A stretch of DNA of 64,000 nt from IMG/VR virus record IMGVR_UViG_3300031953_000001; one strand, written 5' to 3'. The stretch comes from a virus. Taxonomy: Duplodnaviria; Caudoviricetes. Positions 4,627 through 60,700 of the stretch are shown piece after piece (position 1 is the stretch's first letter; each line of letters begins with the position of its first letter). The notes under the pieces were generated by a model. It made no database searches, was not told the DNA's origin, and saw nothing but the letters and a program-made list of their open reading frames with translations. The translations under genes were made by a program, and so were the position numbers.

Positions 4627-6133
4627 TCCAACCAAACCCGATGACCAGACATCACCTGAAGGTCAAGTCGAGACTCCAATCCCAGAGGCGGCTGCCGAGC
4701 CAACCGCTCAAACACCGCCTGTGGTTGATCCTAATAAAACGCTGTATGAACAGATACGTCCTATTGTGGCACCCCTGACCGACGAAGACAAAGCCCGTCG
4801 GTTTGACGACGCTATCTTCTTGTTGATGTCCTCTCGGGAAATCGCCACCAAACACTTGGACGATGTGAAACCTGATCAATTGACCGGAGGACGCGCTGAT
4901 CTGCTGCGCTGGCAGCAAAGCATTCGAGCCGTTGACCCACATTACCCGGACACCAACGTGAGTCCCTTTGAACGCCCAGGCGGCCACTGGCGTCAAGCGG
5001 TTGAGAATGAAGGCGATGAGTTGACCGCTGGCCGACCTCGATTGAATCAAACCTCCGGTAAGGTCACCGGCGAATCGGCACTGTTGAGGGTACGTGCGGC
5101 GGTAGGTCTAGGTACCATCACCAACGTGCCTCTGTGGCACTCCGGACTTTGGTTAAAGCTCAAGGCTCCCTCGGAAAGCACCTTACTGGAACTTGAACGT
5201 CGGATCGCCCGAGACAAGACCATTCTGGGAAGATCCACCATGGGCGTGGCTTTCTCCAACGTGTCGGTGTACACCCAATCCAATCTGACGGACATGATCT
5301 TTAACCACGTCTACGATGGGTCGGTGAAAGATCTGTCGGTGAAGGCATTGAAAGAGCAAGTGTTGATTACCGACATTCCTCAGTTGGTCTGGGGTATGGC
5401 GTCCACCATCTGGCCCAACGGCTACCGTTTGGTTCGGCCCTGTGTTAAAGACCCAGCCGTCTGTACGCACACCGACGAAGCACACGTTAACCTGAGTAAG
5501 CTGTCGTGGGTCAACAACCGCATGGTATCTAAGTTCCAACGCAACCTGATGAGCGATCGCGACGGTAAGTTCACCGACGACCATCTCTCGACTTACCGCA
5601 AGGAACACAAAGCCCCGCAAACTCGAATGATCAAAATCAACGACGGTTTAAGCTTAAAGCTTCAGGTACCCACGATCGCGGATTACGAGCACTGCGGTTT
5701 CCGTTGGGTCGATGAGATTGAACGCATGACCGACGAAGCCTTCGGCCAACGTCTGCGTGGGGAAGAGCGCGAGCAGTACATCCTACAGCAAAGCGCCATG
5801 ACCAACCTACGTCGATACAGCCATTGGGTGAAAGAGGTGGTCTTCTCTGAGGACTCGGTCACTGAAGACCGTGAGTCGGTAGACGAGGCGTTAGACAGTC
5901 TCTCTGGAGACGCCCGGGTCAGCAACATGATCATCGAACAGATCGAAGGCTTCATGCGCGACTGTGTGATCAACGCCATTGGCATCCCCAGCTACGATTG
6001 TCCTAAGTGCGGTCAACCGCCCAACGAAGACGACTTACCCCGCCACCTGAATGAGATCATTCAACTGGAGGTCAATGAGATTTTTTTTACCCTACACTAC
6101 ATGAGGGTTTTAGGGATCTTGGAAAGCGACTAG
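4619..6133 (+). CDS. conserved jumbo-phage protein with C-terminal CPKCG knuckle; candidate tail/baseplate assembly chaperone (frameshift parent)
   Basis: 504 aa ORF; YDCPKCG; T8 slippery run near the 3' end. Confidence 0.75.
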   Translation: MSDPTKPDDQTSPEGQVETPIPEAAAEPTAQTPPVVDPNKTLYEQIRPIVAPLTDEDKARRFDDAIFLLMSSREIATKHLDDVKPDQLTGGRADLLRWQQSIRAVDPHYPDTNVSPFERPGGHWRQAVENEGDELTAGRPRLNQTSGKVTGESALLRVRAAVGLGTITNVPLWHSGLWLKLKAPSESTLLELERRIARDKTILGRSTMGVAFSNVSVYTQSNLTDMIFNHVYDGSVKDLSVKALKEQVLITDIPQLVWGMASTIWPNGYRLVRPCVKDPAVCTHTDEAHVNLSKLSWVNNRMVSKFQRNLMSDRDGKFTDDHLSTYRKEHKAPQTRMIKINDGLSLKLQVPTIADYEHCGFRWVDEIERMTDEAFGQRLRGEEREQYILQQSAMTNLRRYSHWVKEVVFSEDSVTEDRESVDEALDSLSGDARVSNMIIEQIEGFMRDCVINAIGIPSYDCPKCGQPPNEDDLPRHLNEIIQLEVNEIFFTLHYMRVLGILESD

Positions 6134-6159
6134 CTGGCCAAGCCAAACCCCATGTAGTG
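6082..6159 (+). promoter_or_regulatory. programmed -1 ribosomal frameshift signal
   Basis: T_TTT_TTT heptamer (6082-6088), 6-nt spacer, 15-bp stem (6095-6110 with 6145-6159, one bulged A); -1 frame is open into the next ORF. Confidence 0.8.
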
Positions 6160-6594
6160 GATCGCGTGTACGGGCTGACGCGGGTGCACAGCAACCCGTT
6201 GTTCGACAAGACGCTTAGGAACACCGGGGTACTCACCTCCGATCAGGCGCAAGTGGTGCGCTCGATGTTGTACGACGTGTCGTTTGACATCCATGACCAT
6301 TACTCACCGGACAGCACTAACCCACTGAACACCGTGGCGGTGCATGAACGGGAGGACTATCGGGAGTTGGATGGGCTCTATCACAGCGTCTGGCGTTACG
6401 ATCAGCAAGACATCAAAGGTCGGTTTGGGCTGTCTGTGGTGGAGTACCTGGAGCTTCCTCGGGACGTCATAGAGACGTTGACCTCGGTGGGTGAACGCGC
6501 CAACAAACGCATGCAAACCATCGAGGCCAACGCCAAACAAGGGGGCGCTAATGACCATCAGTCTGGAAACCCGTGGCGACATCTTCGAAAGTAA
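6088..6594 (+). CDS. -1 frame extension (C-terminal part of a predicted 658 aa fusion with 4619-6088); listed in the ORF track as 6157-6594
   Basis: Frame is open from just after TGA 6076-6078 to TAA 6592-6594; GTG 6157 has no RBS and sits in the stem; FGLSVVEYLELPRDVIE motif. Confidence 0.7.
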   Translation, partial: YPTLHEGFRDLGKRLAGQAKPHVVDRVYGLTRVHSNPLFDKTLRNTGVLTSDQAQVVRSMLYDVSFDIHDHYSPDSTNPLNTVAVHEREDYRELDGLYHSVWRYDQQDIKGRFGLSVVEYLELPRDVIETLTSVGERANKRMQTIEANAKQGGANDHQSGNPWRHLRK

Positions 6595-7000
6595 GGCCAG
6601 CGTCTTACTGTGCCCTGCCAATACGGTGGGGGCCATGGGCAAAGGGTTGGCGCAGGTGTTTCGACACCGCCATCCGGATCTGTATTACCGGTACAAACAA
6701 CAGTGCCGCAAGCGTCGGTTTCACCCCGAGACCTTGATGTTGTTCAGTCCAGCAAAGAGTCCGTATAAGGTTCTGATGGCCCCGACTAAGGTACATTGGA
6801 AAGACCCATCGCCTCCTGAGTTGGTTGAGAAGACCCTTGAGCGCATCGCCTGGTTGGGTGAACAAGGCCGCATCGCCAGTCTGGCCTTGCCCCCTCTGGG
6901 GTGCGGTGAAGGTGGGTTGGACTTTGATCAGGTGCGGAAGTGGATCTACCAGTACTTGGACCCTAACCCAATGGAGGTAGAGATCTGGTTGGGCCCATAA
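6551..7000 (+). CDS. macrodomain ADP-ribosylhydrolase, DarG-like
   Basis: GDIF...PANTVGAMGKGLA..F, PTKVHWK, SLALPPLGCGEGGL; ATG 6551 after GGGGG. Confidence 0.9.
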   Translation: MTISLETRGDIFESKASVLLCPANTVGAMGKGLAQVFRHRHPDLYYRYKQQCRKRRFHPETLMLFSPAKSPYKVLMAPTKVHWKDPSPPELVEKTLERIAWLGEQGRIASLALPPLGCGEGGLDFDQVRKWIYQYLDPNPMEVEIWLGP

Positions 7001-7023
7001 AGATTCAGACTCAACCCTATTTC

Positions 7024-7043
7024 AAACCTACATCATACCCGTG
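7024..7043 (+). promoter_or_regulatory. putative early promoter (variant)
   Basis: AAACCTACATCATACCCGTG resembles AAACCTATATCACACAGGTG; intergenic, upstream of 7086. Confidence 0.4.
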
Positions 7044-7085
7044 AGTTACCCACCACCCACAATCTATTTTTAGGAGCATACCCAC

Positions 7086-7760
7086 ATGCAAGCTACTGTT
7101 TGGGAAAAAGCGGGCAAGACGTTGCTGGCCACCGCCGTGCACGCCGGCATGAACCGCTTGAGCGGCGAACACTACATCCAACTGACCGACGGCATTGAGA
7201 CGTTCGTGATCCACGGCGACGACTTGAATGAAACCGCCAAAGAAATCACCGACAGCCTACGCCCCCACGAATTCACTCACACGCTGTCCATGCAAACCCA
7301 CGGCGGCGACGAACAAGCGACGGTGCAGATGTTGGATCTGATGATGCAGCAGTGTTCGTTCTTGACCGCCAACGGCGCTATTCCGTTTTCAGTCATTACC
7401 GAAGATCAAGTGAACACCGTGCGAGAGAAGTACGAGGACTTAAGCGAAGCGGTGGGTTACTGGAACCGTGGCGTGGCGTTCTTGGACCACGAACCCAACC
7501 GAGACACAGGCGATATGGAGCTGGTGATCCGGTTGGTGTTGCACGGAGTGATCTTTGCCAGTCGTATCCAAACCGACGATGGCACACCGTTGCAGGAGTT
7601 TGAGTTGTCAAGCAATTATCAAGCACGTCCTCGGTTCAACAGCGACGCCATAGAAACCTTAGGCGGCGCCTTAACCGTGGCGTTCGATTTGGTGTACGTC
7701 TCAGAACCGGCCTTTGAAGAAGTTCCTGATGATGAAGCCACTGACCTGAACCTTAACTGA
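7086..7760 (+). CDS. hypothetical protein
   Basis: 224 aa ORF with AGGAG RBS, followed by a terminator. Confidence 0.75.
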   Translation: MQATVWEKAGKTLLATAVHAGMNRLSGEHYIQLTDGIETFVIHGDDLNETAKEITDSLRPHEFTHTLSMQTHGGDEQATVQMLDLMMQQCSFLTANGAIPFSVITEDQVNTVREKYEDLSEAVGYWNRGVAFLDHEPNRDTGDMELVIRLVLHGVIFASRIQTDDGTPLQEFELSSNYQARPRFNSDAIETLGGALTVAFDLVYVSEPAFEEVPDDEATDLNLN

Positions 7761-7768
7761 GGATCAAC

Positions 7769-7799
7769 AAGAGGAGGCCTCAGGCCTCCTCTTATGCCG
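7769..7799 (+). terminator. hairpin terminator with TATGCCG tail
   Basis: AAGAGGAGGCC-tca-GGCCTCCTCTT then ATGCCG. Confidence 0.75.
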
Positions 7800-7960
7800 G
7801 TTTTATTAGAGGACCACCGTAGCTGAGGTTAATGTATTAACACGACTCACGGCGTCCCTGAGTCCAGTGTGAGTATAGATTACGATACAAGTTAAACTCT
7901 TCTTATTTTTTGTCGTGATCCTATGTCAATACCGACATTGCCTCAATGGAAAGTGCATCT

Positions 7961-9100
7961 ATGGCCACCCTACAGGACCTTGAAACCAAACGCGCCGAGT
8001 TAAGCACCGCGGTCAACGCCTACACCGCCGCCAAAGAATCAGGGGTAACAGCAAACATCGATTCTACCCTTGAAGCCGCTAAGATTAAAGGCGACGAGTA
8101 CGCCAAACTGATTCAACAAGTCAAACAGGACGATTCCAACGTCACCAACGACGACCAACTCTTTTCCAATCCAGGGCGGATGAACGCTCTGGTAAGAGAC
8201 GACATCGCCACCATCGTCCGCACCGGTAAGCTGTTCGGCGCTGGCATGAAGTTACTGGTGGATACCGAAGGTAACGCGGCTAACGCCACCAACGTCATCC
8301 TGTCGTTTGCCGCCGGCAGTGACGTCACCATCGATTGGGGTGACGATACTGGCTATAAGTCGTACACAGGAGCAGCCTCACACGACTACGCGACTCCAGG
8401 TCAGTACACCGTGGAAGTCCACGGTACGGTCAACGGGTTTGCGTCCACACCGACAGCTAACAGAAAACAACTCAAAGACGTGATGCAGTGGGGCTTACTG
8501 GAGTTTGCTTCAGCTATAGCTATGTTTGCGAGTCGCACCGGCTTTGTGATCAGCGCCAGTGACGGTCCGACGTTCTTACCGGGAGCGTCTGCTGCTAACA
8601 TGTTCTCCGGTGCCACGGACTTCAACAGCCCGATTGATCACTGGGATGTGTCGAACGTTGTGAACATGTCCAATATGTTCAGATTCGCGACCGTCTTCAA
8701 CCAACCCTTGAACAACTGGGATGTGTCCAATGTGACGGACATGGCCTTTATGTTCTATATCGCCGTCGCGTTCAATCAACCACTGAACGCCTGGAACACC
8801 AGCAGCGTGACGACTATGGAGAGAACGTTTAGAAACGCAACTAACTTTAATCAACCTTTGAATAGTTGGAACACCGCCAACGTGACGGACATGACCGGCA
8901 TGTTCTATGACGCAGCCGGGTTCAACCTGCCGTTAAACTTGTGGAACGTGGCTAACGTGACGAACATGTTGGGTATGTTCTATAGAGCCTACGCGTTTAA
9001 CCAAGCTCTCTCTGGATGGGACGTGAGTAACGTGACTAGCTACGGGTCCTTTAATAACAATGGGATTATAGACAGTAATAATCTTCCAAACTTCGTCTAA
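7961..9100 (+). CDS. BspA/DUF285-repeat surface-type protein with a PKD-like domain and an N-terminal helical domain
   Basis: About six 25-residue repeats W[DN][VT]SNVxNMxxMFxxAxxFNQPL; TIDWGD...HDY..PGQYTV PKD-like motif; MATLQDL start at 7961. Confidence 0.85.
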   Translation: MATLQDLETKRAELSTAVNAYTAAKESGVTANIDSTLEAAKIKGDEYAKLIQQVKQDDSNVTNDDQLFSNPGRMNALVRDDIATIVRTGKLFGAGMKLLVDTEGNAANATNVILSFAAGSDVTIDWGDDTGYKSYTGAASHDYATPGQYTVEVHGTVNGFASTPTANRKQLKDVMQWGLLEFASAIAMFASRTGFVISASDGPTFLPGASAANMFSGATDFNSPIDHWDVSNVVNMSNMFRFATVFNQPLNNWDVSNVTDMAFMFYIAVAFNQPLNAWNTSSVTTMERTFRNATNFNQPLNSWNTANVTDMTGMFYDAAGFNLPLNLWNVANVTNMLGMFYRAYAFNQALSGWDVSNVTSYGSFNNNGIIDSNNLPNFV

Positions 9101-9133
9101 CGGCATAAGGGAGAGGCCATTTGGCCTCTCCCT
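9101..9133. terminator. terminator between convergent genes
   Basis: CGGCATA-AGGGAGAGGCC-attt-GGCCTCTCCCT. Confidence 0.75.
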
Positions 9134-9141
9134 GTATTCAG

Positions 9142-10893
9142 TTATGCCTCTTCTAACTCGTTCTTCTCAAAGTCAGCTAACAACTCGTCAAACGTCGGTG
9201 CTTTACAGATACTGCACATGATTTCAAGGGCGTTGGTTGCACCCCCCGTAAGGTTAAGGCTGGCCACTCGTTGATTGTGTTCATCAACCCCTTTAATCTT
9301 CACCACCTCAGCGATGGTGGTTGCCTTAGAACAGTTAAGAATGCTTTCCCCATTGGGGTAAGCCGCAGTCACATCGAGATCGTAAACGGCCACCCGGATC
9401 AAGGTTTTCAGATCGGGCACTTCTTCAATCAAGTTCAACCCATTGTCGATCACCAAGTGCGCAGGCAAGGTCGAAATCCAATTTCGAATTGAGACCGTCA
9501 TAGTGTCGAATTCGGTTTTAAGCGTATCCGAGGTCGACGCTATGACCTTCTTCAACTTAAGGCACTCAAAGTGCAAGTCGTCCACGGTACGTCTGGGCTG
9601 AGACGGAAACTTGTCGTAGTCGCTGTGCCCACACTGCATGGAGATGGACTGCCGTAAGTCCCCAACCTTAGGGTTCTCGTCTAAGAGCTCGCAAGAGATG
9701 CAGTCGTACAAGTTGTAGACGCCGTATTCAAGCGGCTCGTTCATCTGCATGTACTGATGCCACTCTAACCCCCCCAGAGTGTCGGCCTTCTCGTTCTTCA
9801 GCTTCTGAGTACCGGCGTACTTTCTTAGGATGGCGTCCAGCGCGTAACTGGACTCACGCCCATTGGCCATGCGCAGCTTTCGAAACACCGCCGCTTGATC
9901 CACCACCCAAAAACTCGCAGGACAGTACAACGTGTGCCAACGATCCACCCAATGCAAGGCCTCTTCACGCCCGCCGGCTGCAATCTTCTTAGCAGGACCC
10001 TCCTTCCAACGGATCTTACGAAACTCAACCGGCACACTAGGGTCGGAGAAGATGTCGTCGGCGTTGCCACCCCAACGCTCAATCGCCGCCAGAATCTTAG
10101 GAATGTCGAAGTTGATGTTCCAGATCGACAAGAAGTCCGGCATCCATTCGTGACACCGCCCTATGACGTGCTGTATGGCCCCTAAGGGTGTGGGGGTATG
10201 GATAACTTCAAGGTCGATCTTGCGATCCTTGACGAGCTCTGGAAGGCGTGTCTCGAAGTACTCCTTCATAGCTTGCGGGAATTGGTCGTTGGATAAGTTC
10301 CAGCCTTTACAACGATCCAAGAAGCGGTCGGTTACGGCTAAGACCGCTTTGTCCTTAAAGGTAACGGCCACGTAAATGGGGTCACCCATGTCGTTCGGGT
10401 CGTTGGTCTCGGTTTCAATGTCCAACACCGCCACGCCGTTCTCACTGACACAGTCGGGGAAGCGCTCCATGTAATGCCGCTTGACGATCGCGGTGGAGGT
10501 GATGTCGGAGCCGTAGAGGTACGGACTGCGGGAGATCTTGCGCAACCCAAACACCGGTGAGCGTATGTTCAAGGCGCGTTTGATGTGGGTCTCTAATTCG
10601 GCTTGGGTGCACTCAAACCGGTCTAGCTTGTTGATGTCTTCCCACTCTTTCTTTTCTTCGTGGTTCTGATACCCAGGCTTGGTGATGTAAAAGGGCCGTC
10701 TGAAGTTCTTCTTCATGCGCACCCGGGGAATCCTACGTCCGTCTTTAAGGTGAACCACCTCTTTGATGACCACCAAATCGTCGGGCACCGCCCCTCGATC
10801 AAACGGGTTGCCTTTGGTGTAACAGACGTGTTTGCACTCGATGCCTTCAATCTCGTCTTCGGTGATGGCCGGGGACTGAATTGCCTCAGTCAT
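9142..10893 (-). CDS. split family B DNA polymerase, exonuclease/N-terminal half (phiKZ gp82-like)
   Basis: ExoI LDIETE, ExoII WNINFDI, SYALDAI, ExoIII YNLYDC, and PolB motif A YDLDVTAAYP near the C-terminus; no motif B/C. Confidence 0.85.
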   Translation of the reverse strand: MTEAIQSPAITEDEIEGIECKHVCYTKGNPFDRGAVPDDLVVIKEVVHLKDGRRIPRVRMKKNFRRPFYITKPGYQNHEEKKEWEDINKLDRFECTQAELETHIKRALNIRSPVFGLRKISRSPYLYGSDITSTAIVKRHYMERFPDCVSENGVAVLDIETETNDPNDMGDPIYVAVTFKDKAVLAVTDRFLDRCKGWNLSNDQFPQAMKEYFETRLPELVKDRKIDLEVIHTPTPLGAIQHVIGRCHEWMPDFLSIWNINFDIPKILAAIERWGGNADDIFSDPSVPVEFRKIRWKEGPAKKIAAGGREEALHWVDRWHTLYCPASFWVVDQAAVFRKLRMANGRESSYALDAILRKYAGTQKLKNEKADTLGGLEWHQYMQMNEPLEYGVYNLYDCISCELLDENPKVGDLRQSISMQCGHSDYDKFPSQPRRTVDDLHFECLKLKKVIASTSDTLKTEFDTMTVSIRNWISTLPAHLVIDNGLNLIEEVPDLKTLIRVAVYDLDVTAAYPNGESILNCSKATTIAEVVKIKGVDEHNQRVASLNLTGGATNALEIMCSICKAPTFDELLADFEKNELEEA

Positions 10894-11069
10894 AGGGTAA
10901 CTCCTTGGGTTTTACTGGGTTAAATAACAACATCGCCACGTGCCGTATATTAGTGTCGATGGTGGGCTGGTTATTTTTTGAACGGTGGGTGGCCATCTTC
11001 CCTACCGATACCATCACGATCATATGTAGTAATTAAAGTCATCGACCGACCGACGGACGGATTCTAACC

Positions 11070-12344
11070 ATGTCTCGTAAACGTATATTGACCCAATCGA
11101 TGGAAAGCGTCAAGCATCAGCCCAACCCTCGGTTGTTCCGAGACCTGGTAACCGCCTTCACTTTCCTGCGTGAAACTGACCATCCGCTAACCAACTCCGC
11201 TCGCGATCGCACTGTGATCAAAGAGTCAAACGTAGAACGCGTGGTCAAACACTACACCAATCTGAACATCCGCTTAAGCTCTGGTTCGGCAGGTGCACGG
11301 GCGTACGTATCGCCCCCCAGGCTTGATAAAAACCACCCCTTCAACACCCCAGAGCGCCGTGCACTCTCAGACAACAGCGATGCAGTTTTAGCCATTCGTC
11401 GCGCTAAAGGTAGGGTCCAGGGCAGCATCGATCTGGACAAAGGTCGGGTTGAGGGAGTTTACGCCGAGTTGATCAACGACGTCTTTGTCTCCAGTGAGAT
11501 TATTCAAGGCGATTTCTTTACGGTTGAGGAGGCCACGGCGCTCTTCCTTCACGAGCTCGGTCACTTGATGACCTATTACGAATATCTAGGTCGTGTCTAC
11601 ACGTTGAATCATGTCCTAGGGGATCTGGTTCGAGGTTACGCTAAAAGCACCAGCATCAAAGAACGGGTAGAACTCCTGTCGGTCACCCGCGACGCGTTGG
11701 ATTTGACGGAACTTGACGTCGATGCCGCCAGTAGCATTACCGACACAGAGACTGTACAGATGCTGATTGTGTCTGAAGTGGTAAACGAACCCTCCAGCGC
11801 CACCAACACTCGGATTTACGATTATCGCACTTCTGAGGCCTTGGCTGATCAATACGTCAGTCGAATGGGGGCAGGGCGTCACTTAGCCACAGGTATGGAT
11901 CGACTGTTTCGCCTGGCAGGCACGAACAGCTATTACAGCGACCGTAAGTTCCTGATGATAGAAGCGGTGAAGATTCTTTTGATTGCTAAGTGGTTTGTGG
12001 GTTTCTTTGTATTGGCCGCTCTAACCGCCAGTTTGGTTAGTCCCGATTTGAAGTACGACCCCATCGGTCAACGACTTAAGCGTATCCGTCAGGACATCGT
12101 TGAGGCCATGAAGAACCCCCGGTTAGATAAAGACTACCGCAAACGCCTGCAAGAAGACGCTGACGTGCTGGCGGATCTTTTGAGTAACGTTAAAGACCGT
12201 GAGACGATTATTGGGTATTTGTGGAAACGTCTATACCCCCCGAATATCAAACAAATGAACCGCGTCAAGATGATGCAGGACCTCGAAGCCCTGGCCAACA
12301 ACGAATTGTTCGTCAAAGCCAACTTACTGACTGTAAAAGCCTAA
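11070..12344 (+). CDS. virion head protein with zincin-like HExxH motif
   Basis: FLHELGH followed by EALADQY; SME site near the N-terminus; first gene of the structural block. Confidence 0.65.
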   Translation: MSRKRILTQSMESVKHQPNPRLFRDLVTAFTFLRETDHPLTNSARDRTVIKESNVERVVKHYTNLNIRLSSGSAGARAYVSPPRLDKNHPFNTPERRALSDNSDAVLAIRRAKGRVQGSIDLDKGRVEGVYAELINDVFVSSEIIQGDFFTVEEATALFLHELGHLMTYYEYLGRVYTLNHVLGDLVRGYAKSTSIKERVELLSVTRDALDLTELDVDAASSITDTETVQMLIVSEVVNEPSSATNTRIYDYRTSEALADQYVSRMGAGRHLATGMDRLFRLAGTNSYYSDRKFLMIEAVKILLIAKWFVGFFVLAALTASLVSPDLKYDPIGQRLKRIRQDIVEAMKNPRLDKDYRKRLQEDADVLADLLSNVKDRETIIGYLWKRLYPPNIKQMNRVKMMQDLEALANNELFVKANLLTVKA

Positions 12345-12354
12345 GGAGAACACC

Positions 12355-12840
12355 ATGCGTAAAGTGGCAAGCACGATCACCGAATGTGTCAACTCAATTC
12401 TGCGTACCAAAGACGTACCCGAGAACGTAGACCAACGTCACCTGAACACGATCATCACCGCAGCGAGCATCGCTTACCGACTGCCTCTGCCCTCCGGTCC
12501 GGTGCACCGTCCTGAGGAGTGGTTCCTGATCAATTGTTTGGCAGGGTATGAAAGCATCGCAGGCGCATTGAACGAATATCTGGTGATGGACGTTAATGAA
12601 GTCGATAAGGTAGTGCGCACCACGTGGTTGCTGCGATACCGCGTTCTGCACATTCCGTACTCGCCGCAAGCCTTGGAAGCGTTGATGCACACGTTAGGCG
12701 ACTCCGATTATGAAGTTGCTGACGTGTACCGCAGCTGGATTTGCGCTTTGGGCGACAACTCAGCCGCGCACGTTATGATGCGGGTAGGTCAAGCCATGAA
12801 CGAGAACGGCGTTTTGGCGGTGGAGACAAGCGATGAGTAA
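12355..12840 (+). CDS. hypothetical (probable virion) protein
   Basis: 161 aa, AGGAG RBS, within the structural operon. Confidence 0.65.
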   Translation: MRKVASTITECVNSILRTKDVPENVDQRHLNTIITAASIAYRLPLPSGPVHRPEEWFLINCLAGYESIAGALNEYLVMDVNEVDKVVRTTWLLRYRVLHIPYSPQALEALMHTLGDSDYEVADVYRSWICALGDNSAAHVMMRVGQAMNENGVLAVETSDE

Positions 12841-14095
12841 CGGGGCCTACAGCGAAGAAGACGCCCTGTCGCTGGAAAACGCCTTCGAAATCGAGCTGCA
12901 GAACCTGGCCGATCTGGAAAGCCGCCAACACTGGGTGATCCAACATCGAAACGTCGATCGCTTAACCATGGAGGCCCTGCATCAGAAGTACCCAGAAGCG
13001 ATCAACGCTGACTATCCGGTCAACTCGTTCAGCAAAGACCCTTCGGATCAGAACCTCCCGGTGTCTTTAGAGTCGTTCAGCATCGCCAAAGCGGTGGCAG
13101 TGGCTGCCGCAGGCGCGTTATTGGGCAGCATCTTGTTCATGTTGATCAAGCTGTTTCGCACCGACAACGCCGAACAACGCGCAAGCGATGTGGATAAGAA
13201 GACCCGTGAGATGGCCGACACCGACAAGGACATAGCGACCTTGATCAAAGACGCCAAGTCCTTGAATCTGTCCGAGGCAGACACGCGTTTACTGCGAAGC
13301 CTGACCGACAACCGTTATCAAGAGTATCTAGACCCTCCCATTAGTGCTCGCGCCAGTTCTCAGGGTAAGATCCTCATGGACGCGGTTGTCCCTGGTGGAG
13401 ACGTGTTTCAGTTGTTGTCTAAGTGGTCGCGCAGCATTCACAACCACTACACCAGCTTCAGCGCACGGGTTAATGAATTGACGGAAGCTATTGGGAAGAT
13501 GTACGAGGTGGAAGCCAAAGATTCGGCCAAATTCGTGCAGGATCTGGACGCTTGCGTCTTGCAACCAGACGATGAGTTCTTTAAAGACATGGCACAGTTG
13601 CACGATACCTTCCAATCGTTCCTACAGCGCTCTCAGGGCGACTACATGAGCTTTTTGGCGGATAACGTACTCAACACACGGGAGTATTACGACCTGGCGC
13701 TGAACGACGATCAGTGGCCTAAACAGGTGAGTAAGATTTCACCTAATGGCGGTAAAGGGTTGGATAAGAACCTGGATCGGTTAGAGAAAGACGCTCAAGC
13801 CTTGATCGATGGCAAACGCGAAGCCGCGTTCAAAGCCAAACGTTCTAAGAACGGCGTGCGGGTAGACGACCAAGGCAACATGGAAATGGACGCCGTGGTC
13901 GGCAATGTGGACGTCGAGCGGGCCGTGAAGAACGCCGAACTGGCCATTCGTTCTGAGGTGCAGTTTCTCAGAGCGTACCGCACCAACCTCAACCGCGTCT
14001 TGGAGTTCTATCGTCAAGCCGCTGTCACGTCGTTGAAATGCAACACCGAACGCAGTCGTCAGCTTCGGGAGATGATCAACCGGTCACAGAACTGA
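12833..14095 (+). CDS. probable head protein with S-L-E maturation sites
   Basis: LSLE and VSLE followed by a small-residue hydrophobic stretch; 420 aa. Confidence 0.65.
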   Translation: MSNGAYSEEDALSLENAFEIELQNLADLESRQHWVIQHRNVDRLTMEALHQKYPEAINADYPVNSFSKDPSDQNLPVSLESFSIAKAVAVAAAGALLGSILFMLIKLFRTDNAEQRASDVDKKTREMADTDKDIATLIKDAKSLNLSEADTRLLRSLTDNRYQEYLDPPISARASSQGKILMDAVVPGGDVFQLLSKWSRSIHNHYTSFSARVNELTEAIGKMYEVEAKDSAKFVQDLDACVLQPDDEFFKDMAQLHDTFQSFLQRSQGDYMSFLADNVLNTREYYDLALNDDQWPKQVSKISPNGGKGLDKNLDRLEKDAQALIDGKREAAFKAKRSKNGVRVDDQGNMEMDAVVGNVDVERAVKNAELAIRSEVQFLRAYRTNLNRVLEFYRQAAVTSLKCNTERSRQLREMINRSQN

Positions 14096-18156: not shown

Positions 18157-19308
18157 ATGTTTGACAGTAAAGTTGCGGTGACGGCCCTGGAGTTTGCTGC
18201 CCAGGTTCCCGATTTGCTCCGTTCCAGTACCAGCAGTTCATTAATTGAGTACACCCGACCTACGCGGGTCGAGCCTGTGTGTTTGGTTGATTTGCGCGCT
18301 GCTCAGTTGCCGTACATCGACGACGTTATGCACGCGGCCTTGAATATCTTTTCAGGGTACTATTTACAGGCCGTGAGTCTGGCGGTCAACGTGGGCAGTG
18401 TCAACGTCTTAAAGACGCTGGACAAACTCAACCCCAACCGTTCCCCCATTGAAGCAGCTGATCGGGGAGCTCGTGACTTTGGTAAATGGTCCTTCTCAGG
18501 AGAGTCGTTCAGCTTTGGCTTGCCGTTTCCGGATCAGGATCGAGGACTCGTGGCCTCATTGGAGGCACGTCGTCAAGACTCTGAATCGAGCATGGAAGCC
18601 ACCATCACAGAACAAGAGCGCGATATGGAAGGCGGCCCTGGCGCTAAGAGCATCGCCGACATCAACGAGAACTCAAACCTTTCCGTTGGTAAACTATTGG
18701 ACGTCAAGGTCAAAAGTGAAGGGCAAGAAGGTAGCTTCCCGGTATCGGTGCGTTTGATGGTAAGTACCATCCGTCCCGATGTCATGGCTCATACCTTATC
18801 GCTTGGCTCCAAGGACACCAGCATCAAAGAACGCTGGCACGGCTGGCGGTCGGGTCAGTTAAAGTTCTTCCGCGATCTGGTGATGGCGCAGGACATGATC
18901 GATGAACACCGCAAGAACCTGATGACCGACGGCAGCGGCTATTACCAGGCCCAAGTCGGGCGCAAGAACAAGAACATGATTTCCGGCATCTTGTCTCGCA
19001 ACCCATCAGTGGCTACCGCATCGTCCATATTCGTCATGACCAGCGACACCGCTAAGGATCTGGAACGGAACGCTCGGGCGCGCTTGAAGAACTTCAGTGA
19101 TCGGGAAAAGATATTTAAGGACACCTACGCGATGATGTTTTTTGTCATCGACCCCGATTGGGAACAGGTGACCATCTATCACCGCAGCATTGAATCCCCG
19201 AGTGAGGTTTCCATACGCGAACTGCAGCGCAGCAACAAGCGTGGCGGCGGCCCGGACATCATGGAAATTCTCAACGCCTTCCGCCAGGCCAAGTCACCTA
19301 CACTTTAA
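18157..19308 (+). CDS. inner head protein (phiKZ gp89-like)
   Basis: 383 aa; ALE, SLE and SME sites; divergent from the previous gene as in phiKZ-like phages. Confidence 0.6.
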   Translation: MFDSKVAVTALEFAAQVPDLLRSSTSSSLIEYTRPTRVEPVCLVDLRAAQLPYIDDVMHAALNIFSGYYLQAVSLAVNVGSVNVLKTLDKLNPNRSPIEAADRGARDFGKWSFSGESFSFGLPFPDQDRGLVASLEARRQDSESSMEATITEQERDMEGGPGAKSIADINENSNLSVGKLLDVKVKSEGQEGSFPVSVRLMVSTIRPDVMAHTLSLGSKDTSIKERWHGWRSGQLKFFRDLVMAQDMIDEHRKNLMTDGSGYYQAQVGRKNKNMISGILSRNPSVATASSIFVMTSDTAKDLERNARARLKNFSDREKIFKDTYAMMFFVIDPDWEQVTIYHRSIESPSEVSIRELQRSNKRGGGPDIMEILNAFRQAKSPTL

Positions 19309-19322
19309 GGTCGGGATAGACG

Positions 19323-20216
19323 ATGAAGATTGCAAAATACGTTCAGTCATTGCTACCAAGCATTGAAAAGAAGTCAGTCCGTAAGAACCTCGACGATCTA
19401 CGGGCTGAATTACGGGATCACACCTTACCTCCGTTTCAAACGTCCCATGAGATGCTCAAACGCTGGCGGTTCAAAGACCGCTTCTGTCAAGACGTCGACA
19501 AGCGCTTTCCTCGGGAAGTGGGTTCCAAGTTCCGTGGCAACTACGTGGAAGTCACTTACTTCATCCTTAAGCGGACGTTGGAGAACATCGATACGTTTGA
19601 TAAGATGGTGGATGAGGCTTACGCCCACGATGTAGTGCGTTCCGCGATCTCGTACAGCGACACCCAACTGCTTCAACTGATCGAAGCCATTTCCTTTGCG
19701 GTACGTTACGCCCGGAAGCTGTTGATGTACACCTTGGCGCAGGAAGTGGATCTGTACCGAGACAACAATCTGCGTGGCCAAGAGCTGACCAAAGCAGAAA
19801 CCGACTGGTTGATCCGTAACGTGCAGGTGTTTTACCTGACTCTGCGGGCTTTGGACAAGCCGGGTAAGGACTACCTCAGCATCTTCCAAGAAATCCCAGA
19901 CATAGCGGTGGATGTGGACAACGCCGACAATGTCGCGGCCATGGTGGGGTCTCAGAACCTTGACCCGCTACGGTTAGGCGCCCATGGTTTGATCTTAAAC
20001 CCCATCTATCACGTTCGCATCGCTTGGACCGAGTGGCAAGTCGCTCGTTACGACTCCGCGAAAGAAGAACGTAAGATGTTGGAGTTCCAGATTCTGGATA
20101 TGAAGAACGCCCTTGATAATAAGAGCGATCCTAAACTGGAGAAGGCCCTTGAGTACACCCAAGACCGCGTGTCTCGGTTGAGCTACAAGATTCAGAAGAT
20201 AGAAGAAGGGGAATGA
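19323..20216 (+). CDS. head protein (phiKZ gp90-like)
   Basis: 297 aa helical protein; LILNPIYHVRI motif; synteny. Confidence 0.6.
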   Translation: MKIAKYVQSLLPSIEKKSVRKNLDDLRAELRDHTLPPFQTSHEMLKRWRFKDRFCQDVDKRFPREVGSKFRGNYVEVTYFILKRTLENIDTFDKMVDEAYAHDVVRSAISYSDTQLLQLIEAISFAVRYARKLLMYTLAQEVDLYRDNNLRGQELTKAETDWLIRNVQVFYLTLRALDKPGKDYLSIFQEIPDIAVDVDNADNVAAMVGSQNLDPLRLGAHGLILNPIYHVRIAWTEWQVARYDSAKEERKMLEFQILDMKNALDNKSDPKLEKALEYTQDRVSRLSYKIQKIEEGE

Positions 20217-40768: not shown

Positions 40769-41323
40769 ATGTTTAGTTACAAGGCACAGCTTGAAGAGCT
40801 AAAGTCTACGTTGGACAAACTTCAACACGAGATTGAAATTCGGTTGAACGTCGGGGAAGACCCCGGTGAGGTGTGCATCGATCTGCGTCACACGCTAAAA
40901 GGTCTGTCTAAGGAAAAGGTGTTTGACATACACACGCATCTGCCAGCGTCAGAAGAGAAGTTCGAGCGAGTGTTGGCGGCGTTGTTGCACGACGCGTTAG
41001 GACGCCACTGCGTAGACATCGGTGTGCTTAACGACAACACTCAACTGCTTGAAGCATTGTACACCCGTTGTCCGGAGTGGGATACCGTTGCCTGGGACGC
41101 CGACCTGGCTCGAAAGAGCATCAACTCTTTGTCTATCGCCCACCTGATCCGCCACTTAACGCTTAAAGACAGAGTTTTCTATCGGGTCAGTTTGATGGCT
41201 TCCCAAACCCACGACCCGAGGATTGACGTCATTGCAGAACATGAGCCGCACTTGAAACGCATCGTCATATTTGGTCTTGAAGTCATCGGTCGAGAACTTC
41301 CATCATTCATTAAAACCTCGTAA
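40769..41323 (+). CDS. hypothetical protein
   Basis: ATG 40769 after GGAGG. Confidence 0.7.
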   Translation: MFSYKAQLEELKSTLDKLQHEIEIRLNVGEDPGEVCIDLRHTLKGLSKEKVFDIHTHLPASEEKFERVLAALLHDALGRHCVDIGVLNDNTQLLEALYTRCPEWDTVAWDADLARKSINSLSIAHLIRHLTLKDRVFYRVSLMASQTHDPRIDVIAEHEPHLKRIVIFGLEVIGRELPSFIKTS

Positions 41324-54287: not shown

Positions 54288-54453
54288 TGTTCGTCCTTCG
54301 TTGTTACTTAATCGAGTGTCGATGTGACCGCTGCGAATCGTCACTCGAGAGTAGAAAATTGTTCGAGCTATACCATCCCCAAGTCCCATCCAATTTGAAT
54401 AATGCACCATAATGTGATGCAGACCTTTATGAACAAGTCGAAGGGAGCCTACC

Positions 54454-55017
54454 ATGCGACTGATTTGCGTACCTCTGTGGCTGTCACAGACCCTAACCTA
54501 CCACGGCCTGCCGGAGAGCGCATTGTTGAATGAGGCAGCGCTCTCTCCCTACATGCCTAAAAAGGACTTGGATTGCTACAATGATCTGAGCCTGGATGCA
54601 AACGAGTACCTCGAGAAGACCTTTGGTATCCAGAACTTGGTGCACCACGCGTCTGCTCCTGTGCGGGTTGATCGACCGTTTGGTCAATCCAGTGACGTAA
54701 AGGCCAGCTTAGCTGCCCGGATCGTCCGCGATCTCGAGATCAGTCAAGGAACTAAGGGTTTAGATTACGCCATGGTTGGACGGCACTTACCGTCCGGTTA
54801 TGTCTGGTCAATGACGGCCCGCCCTCTTAACAGCACCCAAGGCGACGGTGCGATTGGGTTGTTTGTGTATTTAATAGAAGGCACGTCCGCTGACAAAATA
54901 GAAGCCGATACGGTATTTTTGTCCGAACTGCTGGAACTATTGTATGCACACAATCTAACCATCGACAGGCTGGCGCAGTCCGGCTTACTTGGGGCTTACA
55001 TTAATCGCCTAACCTAA
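54454..55017 (+). CDS. conserved protein upstream of the capsid gene (phiKZ gp119-like position)
   Basis: 187 aa, GGGAG RBS. Confidence 0.6.
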   Translation: MRLICVPLWLSQTLTYHGLPESALLNEAALSPYMPKKDLDCYNDLSLDANEYLEKTFGIQNLVHHASAPVRVDRPFGQSSDVKASLAARIVRDLEISQGTKGLDYAMVGRHLPSGYVWSMTARPLNSTQGDGAIGLFVYLIEGTSADKIEADTVFLSELLELLYAHNLTIDRLAQSGLLGAYINRLT

Positions 55018-55110
55018 GCTTGGTGATAAGCGCCGCCATTGTATAGTGGCGGCTTTGAAATCCAGCTACTGGCCCATTAGATTTCTTTTGAGCAAAAGGA
55101 ACCAAACAGC

Positions 55111-57273
55111 ATGTCTAAGAAAACGCGTTTTTCGAATGAATTGAGCGGTATCATCTCCAGTCTGGAAATGTCCCTTAACCACAACGGCATCGAAGTCACC
55201 GACGGTGTTGCTAAAGGAGCTTACTCTCAGGAGTCAGCACAAGACTTCAACCAACACTTTGACACACAGACTCAAGGTCTGCGTCAGATTGTTTCGGATG
55301 CGATGAGTGAGATCGATCCGGGCTTCTCCCAAGAAGCGATGAGTGCAGACATGAGCGAGCCTATGCGCGCTGGTCTGATTGCAGCCCTGGCTTCACGTAA
55401 AGGCGCAGCTCAGTACCACAAGCAAGCCCTGGCTTCCCAGAACAACGACCGCAACCTGTCCTTGGAATCTATTTTCAATGGCGTAGGCGGTGAAGTAAAC
55501 GTAGCCGAAGCCAACGCTTATTCTCAGGAATCGTTTGACGAAACTGAGCTGGCGAACTTTGCTGCACAGAACATCATGTACAACGTACTGGCCTCGCGTC
55601 AGGACCCGTTTGCAGAAGCGTTCTTCCCAACCAAGGTTGTGACTCCGGCTGAAGCTGGCATCAAGATCACCGTGGATCGTCAGGAAGTTCTGGACTACGC
55701 TCAACACAAGACTGACGGATCGTCTTTGGGTGAGAAGCGCTCCAACCTGATCGATGCCTTTGCCGATGCAAGCATCCTGAACCGTCCGGCTACCGAACTG
55801 GTACCCTGGGCTAAAGAAGACAACAGCAACGACGGTTACTTTGTTGCTAACGACGATGTTGCTGCACGCTCGGTTGAGTTGTCTGGCCATGCGGTACGCA
55901 CACGTCCGTTGAAGATGGGCAAGCGTGTTAACCTGCTGGGCATCTCTTCACACCCAGGTCTGATCGACAATGGCGTTCTGGACGTCACCGATCAAATCGC
56001 CAACGGCATGCGTTTGACCAACCTGTACGTTAAATTGGTCGACAGCACCGCCACACCGGCAACTGTTGAGATTGTGAAGTTGGGCGTGGGCAACATGACC
56101 CGCACTCAGTTCAAGAAATCCCACGAAGGCAAAGGCCGTGAAGTGGTACTGAACTTCATCTCCGACGCGGTGGTGATTGACAGTGCTAGCAAGACACCCG
56201 CCGGTGCTGCTCTGGCCCTGTTGGCCAGCCAAGTAGCTACCCCTGACCTGACCGTTCAACTGTCTCTGTCCGTTAGCGGCTCTGGCAACCTGAACGAAGG
56301 TACTGTGGACGTTCATTCTTCCCCGGTCCGTGTTGAGTCTGTGGTTGATTCTGACGGTTCTGTGTTGTCTCTGTCTGAAGGTGCTGGTAAGGCGGTTGTA
56401 GATCGTCTGGAAGCCCTGAGTGCATCTGTTATCGGTTACGACCTGAACGCACGTCGTTCTAACAGCAACTGGCGCTCTACCGGTGCCCTGATCGACGTAA
56501 CTCCGTACACCGAGAGCTACGCAATCGAGCCAGGCTACCCCATCAGCGTTCTGACGCCGACTGACGACACCCAGAATGGTGCCAAGATCTCTGGTATGGT
56601 TAACGCTGCGCGTATCCGCAACAGCAACAACGCCATCACCACTCTGATCAACTACGGCGAACAGCTGGAAGCGTATCAGCAAGCCATGCTGCGCGGCGTT
56701 AAGCTGGACATCGTGGGCGCTGGTCGTCACGTGGTTAAGCCGTTCTTCGCATCGGACAACCTAGACGTGGCTGCCCGTGTTACGTCCATCAGCTCGCATG
56801 AACGCGCTGAAGACGTGTCCATGGTTCTGGTTGATGCTATCCGTGACATGGCTTACCGCATGTACCGTGAAGCCAACTACGGCCCGGCTCTGGATCTGGC
56901 GAACGCCGGTACTCAGACCAAGCCTATCGTGCTGATCGGTTGTGATGCTGTGGTTCAGCGTTACCTGATGGTGTCTGGTGATGACCGTCTGCTGGGTGAG
57001 ATGGTGGATTACCGCATCGTGTCTACCAACGACACACGCATGACCGACAGCATCTACCTGACCTTCACTCGTGAGCGTCCAGGCAGTGAAGACGGTCTGA
57101 GCTTTGGTGTACACGCGTACATCCCAGAGCTGATCCAGCGTGTGACTACCAACCGTGGTGGTTCTACTGCTAAGAACGATCGTGTCGTTCCTCGCAGCAT
57201 CCACGTACCGGTACTGCCGGTTCTGGGTCACATCCGGGTTGTAGGACTGAAAGAAGCCATCACCAACACTTAA
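55111..57273 (+). CDS. major capsid protein (phiKZ gp120-like)
   Basis: 720 aa with S-x-E propeptide sites, FAEAFFPTKVVTP; strong codon bias; lies between DnaB and the RNAP beta gene. Confidence 0.9.
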   Translation: MSKKTRFSNELSGIISSLEMSLNHNGIEVTDGVAKGAYSQESAQDFNQHFDTQTQGLRQIVSDAMSEIDPGFSQEAMSADMSEPMRAGLIAALASRKGAAQYHKQALASQNNDRNLSLESIFNGVGGEVNVAEANAYSQESFDETELANFAAQNIMYNVLASRQDPFAEAFFPTKVVTPAEAGIKITVDRQEVLDYAQHKTDGSSLGEKRSNLIDAFADASILNRPATELVPWAKEDNSNDGYFVANDDVAARSVELSGHAVRTRPLKMGKRVNLLGISSHPGLIDNGVLDVTDQIANGMRLTNLYVKLVDSTATPATVEIVKLGVGNMTRTQFKKSHEGKGREVVLNFISDAVVIDSASKTPAGAALALLASQVATPDLTVQLSLSVSGSGNLNEGTVDVHSSPVRVESVVDSDGSVLSLSEGAGKAVVDRLEALSASVIGYDLNARRSNSNWRSTGALIDVTPYTESYAIEPGYPISVLTPTDDTQNGAKISGMVNAARIRNSNNAITTLINYGEQLEAYQQAMLRGVKLDIVGAGRHVVKPFFASDNLDVAARVTSISSHERAEDVSMVLVDAIRDMAYRMYREANYGPALDLANAGTQTKPIVLIGCDAVVQRYLMVSGDDRLLGEMVDYRIVSTNDTRMTDSIYLTFTRERPGSEDGLSFGVHAYIPELIQRVTTNRGGSTAKNDRVVPRSIHVPVLPVLGHIRVVGLKEAITNT

Positions 57274-57325
57274 CAGTGAGGTGACTTGAGTTTCGGGCAC
57301 GGTGCCTGATGCTTGAATGTAATGG

Positions 57326-57363
57326 GCGCATAAGGGGCAGGCTTCGGCTTGTCCCTTATGTCG
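57326..57363 (+). terminator. capsid gene terminator with TATGTCG tail
   Basis: CATAAGGGGCAGGC-ttcg-GCTTGTCCCTTATG then TCG. Confidence 0.85.
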
Positions 57364-57368
57364 TCTTG

Positions 57369-57376
57369 ATGGTATG
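57369..57376 (+). promoter_or_regulatory. putative late promoter core ATGGTATG
   Basis: Immediately after the terminator, upstream of 57406. Confidence 0.55.
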
Positions 57377-57405
57377 AACACTCGCCCCTTGGAGATAATG
57401 ATAAC

Positions 57406-57696
57406 ATGGCTACTATTACTGATCTGGACGCAAAACGCGTTGAAATGAATAATGCGATCGATGCGTACAAGCAAGCAATCCTGGATTACCAGGCATCGAC
57501 TATTACTCTGGCACAACTGAATGCAGCTAAAGACGCCGCCAGCAGTAAAGCCGATGAGTTCGGCAAATTGGCCGGTCAAGTGAAGAAAGACAATCCTGGT
57601 ACGCCTACTGCGGATTTCTTTTCAAACTCAACCGTTCAAACCCAGGCACGGATCGATCACGTTGCAACGACCATGACCAATGGCCCAGCGGTTTAG
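57406..57696 (+). CDS. 96 aa helical protein homologous to the N-terminus of the BspA-repeat protein; candidate capsid decoration protein
   Basis: MATITDLDAKRVE...DEFGKLAGQVKKD...FFSN vs MATLQDLETKRAE...DEYAKLIQQVKQD...LFSN. Confidence 0.75.
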   Translation: MATITDLDAKRVEMNNAIDAYKQAILDYQASTITLAQLNAAKDAASSKADEFGKLAGQVKKDNPGTPTADFFSNSTVQTQARIDHVATTMTNGPAV

Positions 57697-57758
57697 TCAG
57701 TCAGCATAAGGGACAAGCCAAAGTCTGAGCGCCAGCAACTTCCTTAACTTCGCATAAC

Positions 57759-57794
57759 CGCATAAGGGAGAGGCCAAATGGCCTCTCCCTATGT
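57759..57794. terminator. hairpin terminator nearly identical to 9103-9133
   Basis: GCATAAGGGAGAGGCC-aaat-GGCCTCTCCCT-ATG. Confidence 0.75.
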
Positions 57795-57812
57795 TTGCCT
57801 TGCACTTTTTTT

Positions 57813-57833
57813 GAGTCATATATCATCAAAGTG
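57813..57833 (+). promoter_or_regulatory. putative early promoter
   Basis: GAGTCATATATCATCAAAGTG upstream of the operon containing the RNAP beta gene. Confidence 0.5.
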
Positions 57834-57872
57834 TTATCCATTACATTCACTAACGGACGAAGACCATGTGAC

Positions 57873-58985
57873 ATGCAACACATCGAGCCGCAAGAGACCC
57901 GATACATCGAGGTTGGTGATGTCGAGGTCTATACAGCCATAAGCCGTGCTCGAGGTCCTTTGGAATACAGTCTGGCGTACTTCAATCACCTCAATCGAGA
58001 GGTAACGATCACGCTGCGCAACGGCGTGCCGTTCAAGCTTCCTGCCGGAGACGGACGGAAGAACTGCGTTGAGGTACTAGCCACCTTCAGCATCGATCCT
58101 CAGGTGAGGGTAGATCCGAAGAGTACATTCCACAATGGCACCAGCGTCTCTGCGGAGTCGTTGGCGCTTAAAGCGGCCCTTGAGAACTGTGAGAAAAGCG
58201 GTCGATTCAACCGAAAAAGCTTCACGCTGAAGTACAGCGTTCCGGCGGAGAAGGTTGAAAAGAACAGCGGTGCCATCTACATTGCCGACTTGGACATGAC
58301 CCTCTCGGTCAGTTCGGACGATCGTCGTGCAATCCATCCGTATAGCCCCAGCAGCGATCGATACCGTCTCATTGAGGCGGAGGTGAATATCAACAACCCC
58401 GAGCGGTTTGGGTATTCTTTGTATCTGATCAGCAACAACGGAGCCATCACAGATAAGTACATTAACGTAGGAGGACGAGTTTATCGCGTACCCAGCATTG
58501 AGAATAAATCATTACGGGATGGCGTTTATCTATGTAGTAGTGGCTGCATAGAAGAAAAGGGAAACGCCCCTGTACCAGTCACCGAGTACTACACCCACGA
58601 ACAAGCTATTGAGCAACTGAGGCTCTTCGACGATCCTGAGACTGCCCGGAACCACGGCGATGCTTTGGCTGCTCGAGAGCAGGAACTTAAAGACCTTCAA
58701 TTTAAATACAAAGAACTAGAACACGATCAGAAAATGGAACGGTTGAAATACGAGCATAAACTGGCCGTACAAAAACAGGAAGTGGAGGAATTAAAGCTTG
58801 AGCAAGAACGTCAATTCGCCCGTGAGGAACACGAGCGTAAGATGCGAGCTATGCGCGATAAGGAGTACTACGACACGCGTCAATCGGCCCGCAAGGATTC
58901 CAGCGAGCTTATCAAGTTCATTCCAGTATTGATCACCGGAGTAATAGCCATAGCAATGGTTATTTCTAAACACAACAAAGACTAG
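57873..58985 (+). CDS. conserved protein with a C-terminal coiled coil and TM helix (phiKZ gp122-like position)
   Basis: ATG 57873; charged coiled coil then FIPVLITGVIAIAMVI. Confidence 0.65.
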   Translation: MQHIEPQETRYIEVGDVEVYTAISRARGPLEYSLAYFNHLNREVTITLRNGVPFKLPAGDGRKNCVEVLATFSIDPQVRVDPKSTFHNGTSVSAESLALKAALENCEKSGRFNRKSFTLKYSVPAEKVEKNSGAIYIADLDMTLSVSSDDRRAIHPYSPSSDRYRLIEAEVNINNPERFGYSLYLISNNGAITDKYINVGGRVYRVPSIENKSLRDGVYLCSSGCIEEKGNAPVPVTEYYTHEQAIEQLRLFDDPETARNHGDALAAREQELKDLQFKYKELEHDQKMERLKYEHKLAVQKQEVEELKLEQERQFAREEHERKMRAMRDKEYYDTRQSARKDSSELIKFIPVLITGVIAIAMVISKHNKD

Positions 58986-58997
58986 GATCGGTTGTTG

Positions 58998-60620: not shown

Positions 60621-60631
60621 AGATGTCCCAT

Positions 60632-60659
60632 GGGGAGGGTCTAACGACCCTCCCCTTTT
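60632..60659 (+). terminator. intrinsic terminator
   Basis: GGGGAGGGTC-taac-GACCCTCCCC-TTTT. Confidence 0.8.
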
Positions 60660-60700
60660 GAGGCCTTAACCTGTAAACTTCGACCCTAAGGAGTGATGTC

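Follow-up and report, generated by a model that had tools for sequence, protein, structure and literature searches.

The gene at positions 7961 to 9100 (+ strand) of the phage DNA that we analysed (a stretch of 64,000 nucleotides, called the window below) encodes one member of a family of nine proteins that have an N-terminal domain in common. Seven of them continue from this N-domain into a PKD-like part and a DUF285 repeat solenoid; the other two consist of the N-domain only. In relatives the same domain carries other heads, and one of the two stand-alone genes is followed by the relic of a full-length copy. On balance, we lean towards the view that the seven are paralogous adhesin-like proteins built on one common docking module, with swappable heads and headless derivatives.

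The window is minus-strand sequence of a 222,493-bp IMG/VR virus record (G000 in the coordinates below), in which direct terminal repeats are present. Judged by its genes, the phage is a chimallivirus-like, i.e. phiKZ-like, jumbo phage from brines. Its major capsid protein (55111 to 57273, +; 720 aa; PF25620, E 1.8e-184) is of the phiKZ type and shares 30–38% identity with those of the nearest cultured relatives. Through the capsid protein two further relatives were located, G002 (77% identical) and G001 (75%).

The family was recognised from a similarity between the long protein and a protein of 96 aa that is encoded at 57406 to 57696 (+). The sequence-only reading had matched residues 1 to about 85 of the former to the whole of the latter. 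BLASTP with composition adjustment extends this match to residues 1–94, with 34 identities in 94 positions (36%) and an E-value of 1e-8; the aligned span is 6–94 of the long protein against 1–93 of the short one. A 384-aa version of the long protein begins at an upstream in-frame ATG at 7946 (7946 to 9100, +) and has five more residues. All paralogs, however, open with MAT..., which makes 7961 the likely start and leaves a protein of 379 aa. When the 96-aa protein was compared with the whole genome, nine places were found, with E-values from 2e-59 to 1e-9, and both window proteins match the N-domain family profile with E 1e-30 or better. The E-values, the nine places and 16 alignment columns that are invariant in 9/9 copies put the match well above coiled-coil noise, which had been considered as its source and can be discarded. 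A wider profile run over the whole genome yielded no members beyond the nine.

The seven fusions are 359–508 aa long and uniform in layout, with 5–11 DUF285 repeats each, and all DUF285 matches of the genome fall inside their genes. The N-domain-only genes encode the 96-aa protein, behind the capsid gene, and a protein of 93 aa (G000 111018–111299). It had been supposed that a minority of the copies carries an adhesin arm. The opposite holds: fusions account for seven of the nine copies here and for five out of five in G002.

In the 379-aa protein, BLASTP, the family alignment and the AF2 model delimit the N-domain as residues 1–93 (7961 to 8239, +). The full-length AF2 model (pLDDT 91) comprises this helical domain, a beta-sandwich of residues 96–158 (8246 to 8434, +) and a solenoid of residues 171–379 (8471 to 9097, +; pLDDT 94–98). 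The solenoid is made of 25-residue repeats of the DUF285/BspA type. It scores 194.9 bits against PF03382 (E 3.9e-58), the cut-off being 25, and thus belongs to this family; a C-terminal 25-residue solenoid is what the protein has in common with the PARCEL/DUF285 BspA-like proteins. The sandwich is called PKD-like because of its modelled strands and weak PKD and PKD_4 matches. In the long protein these matches (PF00801/PF18911; E 0.011–0.02, 15–16 bits) stay under the Pfam cut-offs of 23.5–27; in relatives they go up to E 5e-7. The residues of the PKD motif WGDG...H.Y, namely W126, G127, D128, H141 and Y143, are invariant in the family. Of the PKD + BspA layout proposed earlier, the BspA part is therefore firmly established by its Pfam match, whereas the PKD part remains below cut-off in this protein and leans on the relatives and the modelled sandwich. 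Nor is the apparent lack of a signal peptide unusual, as had been held: it is expected of a phage virion protein.

Conservation is uneven along the chain. Mean pairwise identity amounts to 65% in the N-domain, the PKD part and the first repeats and to 48% in the later repeats. An alignment of 59 repeat units, each of 25–26 residues, shows an invariant scaffold, W..V..M..MF..A..FN, and the repeat entropy identifies positions 10, 11, 14, 15 and 17, which lie between the fixed scaffold residues, as hypervariable.

The N-domain of the long protein is modelled with helices at residues 4–27, 30–57 and 76–88, its N-terminus being part of a soluble helix; the three helices predicted for the 96-aa protein are 4–29, 35–62 and 75–92. 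Between helices 2 and 3 of the long protein, the loop D-D-x-L-F-S is conserved and of low model confidence. In the 96-aa protein, too, the confidence reaches its minimum at the loop with the most conserved motif, D-x-[LF]-F-S. Low AF2 confidence at the most conserved loop is as expected of a motif that becomes ordered on binding. The turn between helices 1 and 2 is variable and differs between paralogs by a 5-residue indel. A family member can be recognised by an N-terminal three-helix module of about 93 aa with conserved D6, R11 and F-S loop, which is followed by a variable head or by nothing. A [GA]-D-E motif, which matches the cleavage consensus S/A/G-x-E, is found in the middle of helix 2 in 8/9 copies and is missing from several relatives.

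If the bundle runs up-down-up, the conserved loop should be found at the end where the N-terminus lies and helix 2 terminates, and the topology would place the variable helix 1–helix 2 turn and the exit to the head at the opposite one. The residues D6, K10, R11, E13, K60, D62, D70, F72 and S73 would then form a pole that faces away from the cargo. The predicted fold itself is a generic three-helix bundle without an informative structural neighbour. Foldseek with the N-domain model against BFVD and PDB retrieved generic helical bundles only and nothing with E < 0.1, and a sequence-profile search of the PDB gave no match.

A profile of the nine N-domains, run against 1.84 billion representative proteins, produced 33 matches, of which about 25 are convincing. 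In the latter the N-domain always starts at residue 1. Further fusion partners had been anticipated, and they exist. By profile search and Pfam, ten members carry PKD + DUF285; a Laminin_G_3 or ConA-like lectin domain follows the N-domain in P0016 (E 7e-8) and P0023 (E 2e-3), other beta-rich heads without a Pfam name in P0007, P0008, P0010, P0022 and P0033, and in P0015 (409 aa) a head without assigned kind. Several members of 75–109 aa stand alone. That the shared domain is an independent module, as the sequence-only reading had it, is now documented by nine genes, by fused binding domains of three or more unrelated kinds in relatives and by an exact exchange point (see below).

Beyond these relatives the N-domain is not met in Pfam, PHROG or cultured phages. 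Megablast, and tblastn of cultured phages, with the 96-aa protein and the N-domain as queries gave nothing significant, and a word-based search of a collection of 5.8 billion proteins with the 96-aa query returned only this protein itself and no close stand-alone ortholog. The N-domains make up a family that has not been described before and has a narrow distribution. The PKD + DUF285 modules, in turn, are common in jumbo phages: tblastn detected them in 102 phage records, and many of these contain several copies. Multi-copy DUF285 sets occur in the jumbo phages PAU, Aeromonas D3, Vibrio pir03, OBP and pEt-SU; these cultured phages differ from ours by lacking the N-domain. Two DUF285 proteins are also contained in the particles of AaV (PMC7507832).

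The exchange of a head can be read from a metagenomic relative (L035) in which the gene order is that of window positions 6000–13000 and the flanks are 79% and 88% identical. The slot of the 379-aa gene is here occupied by the gene for P0010, a protein of 295 aa. Its residues 1–96 are 50% identical to the 379-aa protein (E 4e-24); past 'RTGKL' the two are unalignable. Since the N-domain is retained, the head is unrelated and the homology stops exactly at residue 96, we conclude that heads are exchanged at the domain boundary. A cluster look-up of the alternative head (residues 97–295) led to viral hypothetical clusters only. Between the 225-aa gene and the family gene, L035 has an extra ORF of 162 aa (5446–5934), to which nothing corresponds in the window.

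The slots are conserved between G000, G002 and G001, yet their occupants vary and may be full-length, truncated, a remnant or absent. The five copies of G002 (L024, L026, L028, L029, L030) lie in slots that match G000 by their flanks; each is closest to a different G000 paralog, non-orthologous by slot. The G000 paralogs, moreover, have exact stretches of 38–50 nt in common. Together, the non-orthologous best matches and the common stretches suggest gene conversion or shuffling among the copies. In G001 the slot of the 93-aa stand-alone gene is filled by a fusion of 291 aa, and that of G000 119451–120665 holds only a remnant of 55 aa (L027, G001 40887–41015), broken in mid-N-domain and flanked by a desaturase and an endolysin-like gene. 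Family members thus decay as well as swap. A relic behind the 93-aa gene of G000 was looked for, and nothing recognisable was seen. Immediately upstream both of this 93-aa copy and of one of the full-length copies is a gene for a membrane fatty-acid desaturase (G000 110160–111299 and 118646–120665, respectively).

The 96-aa gene directly follows the major capsid gene, as stated earlier; the ORF order is as described and the PF25620 match confirms the capsid protein. Its product is a predicted three-helix bundle in which all family-invariant residues are kept. It is tempting to regard such a gene as a designed free anchor. Two observations speak against this idea: the post-capsid slot of G002 contains a full-length family gene of 408 aa, and behind the 96-aa gene an old 3' end is left. 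This relic (57732 to 57790, +) is untranslated and consists of the last codons, ...S-N-L-P-N-F-stop, and the terminator hairpin. In the alignment it is identical to the 3' end of the gene at 7961–9100 in 47/52 positions, and it also aligns to the post-capsid gene of G002 and on into the common flank. It counts because of its coding part; the terminator alone would not, since GCATAAGGG plus hairpin is a common form of terminator here. Very probably, then, the 96-aa gene arose from a full-length copy by an internal deletion in which the PKD and DUF285 parts were lost. The N-domain tree is mostly unresolved and sets the 96-aa copy apart from the post-capsid gene of G002; as the tree gives no support, the orthology of the two post-capsid genes rests on slot and relic. 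With the second most divergent N-domain of the family, the 96-aa copy has kept its open frame and the hairpin with CTTATGT in front of it, and its protein may still be made. Loose ends at 57746 seemed to point to a strain polymorphism with a full-length post-capsid gene; this was rejected, because the ends derive from 9059–9132, which has the same 3' end and terminator.

In Goslar the core order is gp42, capsid gene, gp40 and polymerase subunit. The interval between its capsid gene and gp40 contains no ORF, and G001 is likewise empty at this place. When the slot is empty, the neighbour of the capsid gene is the gene for a Goslar gp40-like coiled-coil protein with a C-terminal membrane helix (57873 to 58985, +). 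This gp40-like protein (Goslar gp40 corresponds to L009 29665–31101) is a long charged coiled coil without a Pfam family that always follows the capsid gene or the family slot.

The timing of expression can be judged from promoter-like elements. The late-promoter consensus of phiKZ is TATG; transcription starts at its G, and the non-virion RNA polymerase needs the motif to transcribe (PMC4666361). Upstream of the 379-aa gene, a late-promoter-like CCTATGT (7920 to 7926, +) follows a T-run; the block recurs before the paralog at G000 18832–20043, and three family members have a T-run and then ATCCTATGTC. Just past the stop codon of the 379-aa gene lies a terminator-like hairpin, GGGAGAGGCC-ATTT-GGCCTCTCCC (9109 to 9132, +). 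The 96-aa gene is preceded by a combined terminator and late-promoter-like element (57334 to 57360, +), in which a hairpin (57334–57355) abuts TATG (57357–57360); the motif reads CTTATGT and lies 49 nt upstream of the gene. It matches the phiKZ consensus, in line with the "late motif" noticed earlier at this gene. After the relic, positions 57790–57793 are the TATG of the promoter-like motif that belongs to the next gene. A GC-rich hairpin abutting YTATGY or YTATGYCG is found before about ten genes, including the 96-aa and the gp40-like gene, and the combination of hairpin and YTATGYCG looks like a fused terminator and phiKZ-type late promoter. In the window such sites are 57334–57360 and 57766–57793, the hairpin often having GCATAAGGG in front; the same element is seen upstream of G000 58804–60081, 80532, 131728, 153681, 155068, 164810 and 175978. 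All this fits, but does not prove, late expression of the family members, as the consensus comprises four nucleotides only and comes from another phage.

The way we imagine the system to work is the following. Each fusion would begin with a three-helix N-domain that is specific to the clade (about 93 aa), continue through a PKD-like spacer and end in a leucine-rich-repeat solenoid of the DUF285/BspA type; it would expose the hypervariable repeat positions and would probably be expressed late. The N-domain would be the constant docking module. Its conserved pole, where the D-x-[LF]-F-S loop meets the N-terminus and the last part of helix 2 on the side away from the head exit, would tie all members to one repeated site of the virion, for which the baseplate or a fibre network, the sheath and the capsid are candidates. 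Recombination would trade the heads exactly at the domain boundary, be they DUF285 solenoids of 5–11 repeats or, as in relatives, ConA/LamG-like and other beta-rich domains. The two N-domain-only genes would be secondary products of this head traffic that have lost their heads, and the 96-aa gene probably still yields a headless anchor that is able to fill docking sites.

The gene context is of little help in choosing the docking site. Genes for replication, for lipid modification and for structural proteins are all found around the family copies, which adjoin baseplate-like, desaturase, DNA-polymerase and endolysin genes, so that no single virion part is indicated. One copy follows genes that, by sequence alone, resemble those of a spike (553 aa) and of a PAAR-like tip (101 aa). 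The latter ORF (G000 85067–85372) is glycine-rich, PAAR-like by eye, comes after the 553-aa gene and is situated two genes upstream of the copy at G000 86172–87326.

The closest analogue of the proposed system is the DUF7941 "fibre cloud" of Goslar (gp22, gp23, gp86, gp92, gp161). Goslar virions contain proteins that combine DUF7941 with LRR or carbohydrate-binding parts, plus head-less DUF7941 paralogs, and the latter form filaments that are placed at the peripheral baseplate; the proposed role of the family is host recognition (10.64898/2026.04.21.720040). Here as there, a chimallivirus-specific N-terminal module occurs in many paralogs, either by itself or with LRR or carbohydrate-binding heads. 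The modules, however, are different. DUF7941 is a globular domain with a linker, whereas the putative anchor described here is a helical bundle of 93 aa; neither window protein matches PF25613, and hhalign of the N-domain profile against Goslar gp22 gives a probability of 0.1%. The theme of a conserved anchor with a swappable LRR or lectin head is already described for Goslar; the N-domain family is new. If the N-domain is indeed a virion docking tag, it would be another way, independent of DUF7941, to do what DUF7941 appears to do in Goslar, namely to equip a giant phage with exchangeable heads for host binding. The only DUF7941 gene (PF25613) of the present genome, at G000 140534–141364 (276 aa, E 1e-30), lies about 770 bases beyond the end of the window; Goslar has ten.

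Nine paralogs vying for a single site would be hard to reconcile with a low copy number of that site. In a variant of our proposal which we consider possible but rather improbable, the N-domain could be a docking tag for a high-copy lattice of the virion, capsid or sheath, of a nucleus-forming jumbo phage. One particle would be covered with as many as seven different and rapidly exchangeable lectin or LRR heads, the headless copies setting the head density from late promoters of their own. This would amount to a programmable multi-specific display that is known in no cultured chimallivirus. A complex prediction with capsid residues 130–720 and the 96-aa protein scored 0.00, both chains being poorly folded, and so argues neither for nor against a contact.

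The capsid was also the site chosen by the sequence-only reading, which compared the system with Hoc. In such a display the free 96-aa protein, made alongside the capsid protein, would be the main decoration or cement subunit and the fusions the minority adhesin arms. A family member does directly follow the capsid gene, here and in G002, and we estimate the probability of such an adjacency by chance at about 7% (nine members, about 240 genes). A high-copy lattice could hold nine competing paralogs, and monomeric PKD, LRR or LamG heads are, by general knowledge, nearer to Hoc- or pb10-type decorations than to trimeric fibres. T4 Hoc and T5 pb10 likewise combine a small anchoring domain with Ig-like or adhesive domains; they are monomeric, dispensable-looking and exposed on the particle. 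They are, however, single genes, in contrast to a nine-member family with swappable heads, and match our proteins neither in sequence nor in fold. Gene order lends no support either: G001 and Goslar have nothing in the slot behind the capsid gene, other copies neighbour non-capsid genes, and a distant stand-alone homolog sits after an SMC-like gene. Moreover, G002 has a full-length fusion instead of a free anchor in this slot, the 96-aa gene is very probably a deletion derivative without a close stand-alone ortholog in 5.8e9 proteins, and the outer capsid proteins of phiKZ (gp244, gp35) and Goslar (gp146, gp77), compared by description, are unrelated. A Hoc-like display in this sense is unlikely.

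We similarly doubt that the family acts away from the virion. The N-domain would then be no more than a bundle for self-association or stabilisation, and the proteins would work inside infected cells or at the cell envelope, e.g., by binding host factors or by superinfection exclusion. Several copies do adjoin genes for membrane desaturases, glycosyltransferase-like proteins and an endolysin, yet a signal peptide or membrane segment for envelope targeting appears to be absent, the promoter-like motifs upstream of the genes are of the late, structural type, and a Goslar LRR protein of comparable layout is in virions.

The inner face of the capsid, finally, deserves mention because of phiKZ gp93 and gp162 (PF12699), which also form a paralogous family; their N-terminal 70 residues or so, a helix-loop-helix, are anchored to the shell between capsomers and the remainder is flexible or cleaved. 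Ours might by analogy be a packaging tag inside the shell, its repeat cargo being ejected into the host, e.g., to bind host proteins, and the [GA]-D-E motif of eight copies would fit the cleavage consensus; this is quite improbable, since heads of the PKD, LRR-adhesin and ConA/LamG lectin kinds typically serve for binding outside the cell, the motif lies in mid-helix 2 and is missing from several relatives, and Pfam searches revealed no PF12699 signal here. The phiKZ proteins are internal, proteolytically processed and of another fold family, without homology to ours.

If it is a virion docking tag, the N-domain would have some practical appeal. Its size of 93 aa, the sharp fusion point and the natural range of heads that it tolerates would make it a candidate handle for phage display and for following how the host range of uncultured brine phages evolves. 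The family also provides a natural series for the turnover of accessory adhesin genes at fixed slots, with full-length, head-swapped, headless, remnant and empty states.

The DNA of window positions 54400–60700 is also present in contigs of one metatranscriptome library. One of them, of 378 nt, corresponds exactly to 57399–57776, although such contigs cannot give transcription, its level or its start. In brine metagenomes from about 15 studies (2011–2024) the same DNA recurs nearly unchanged.
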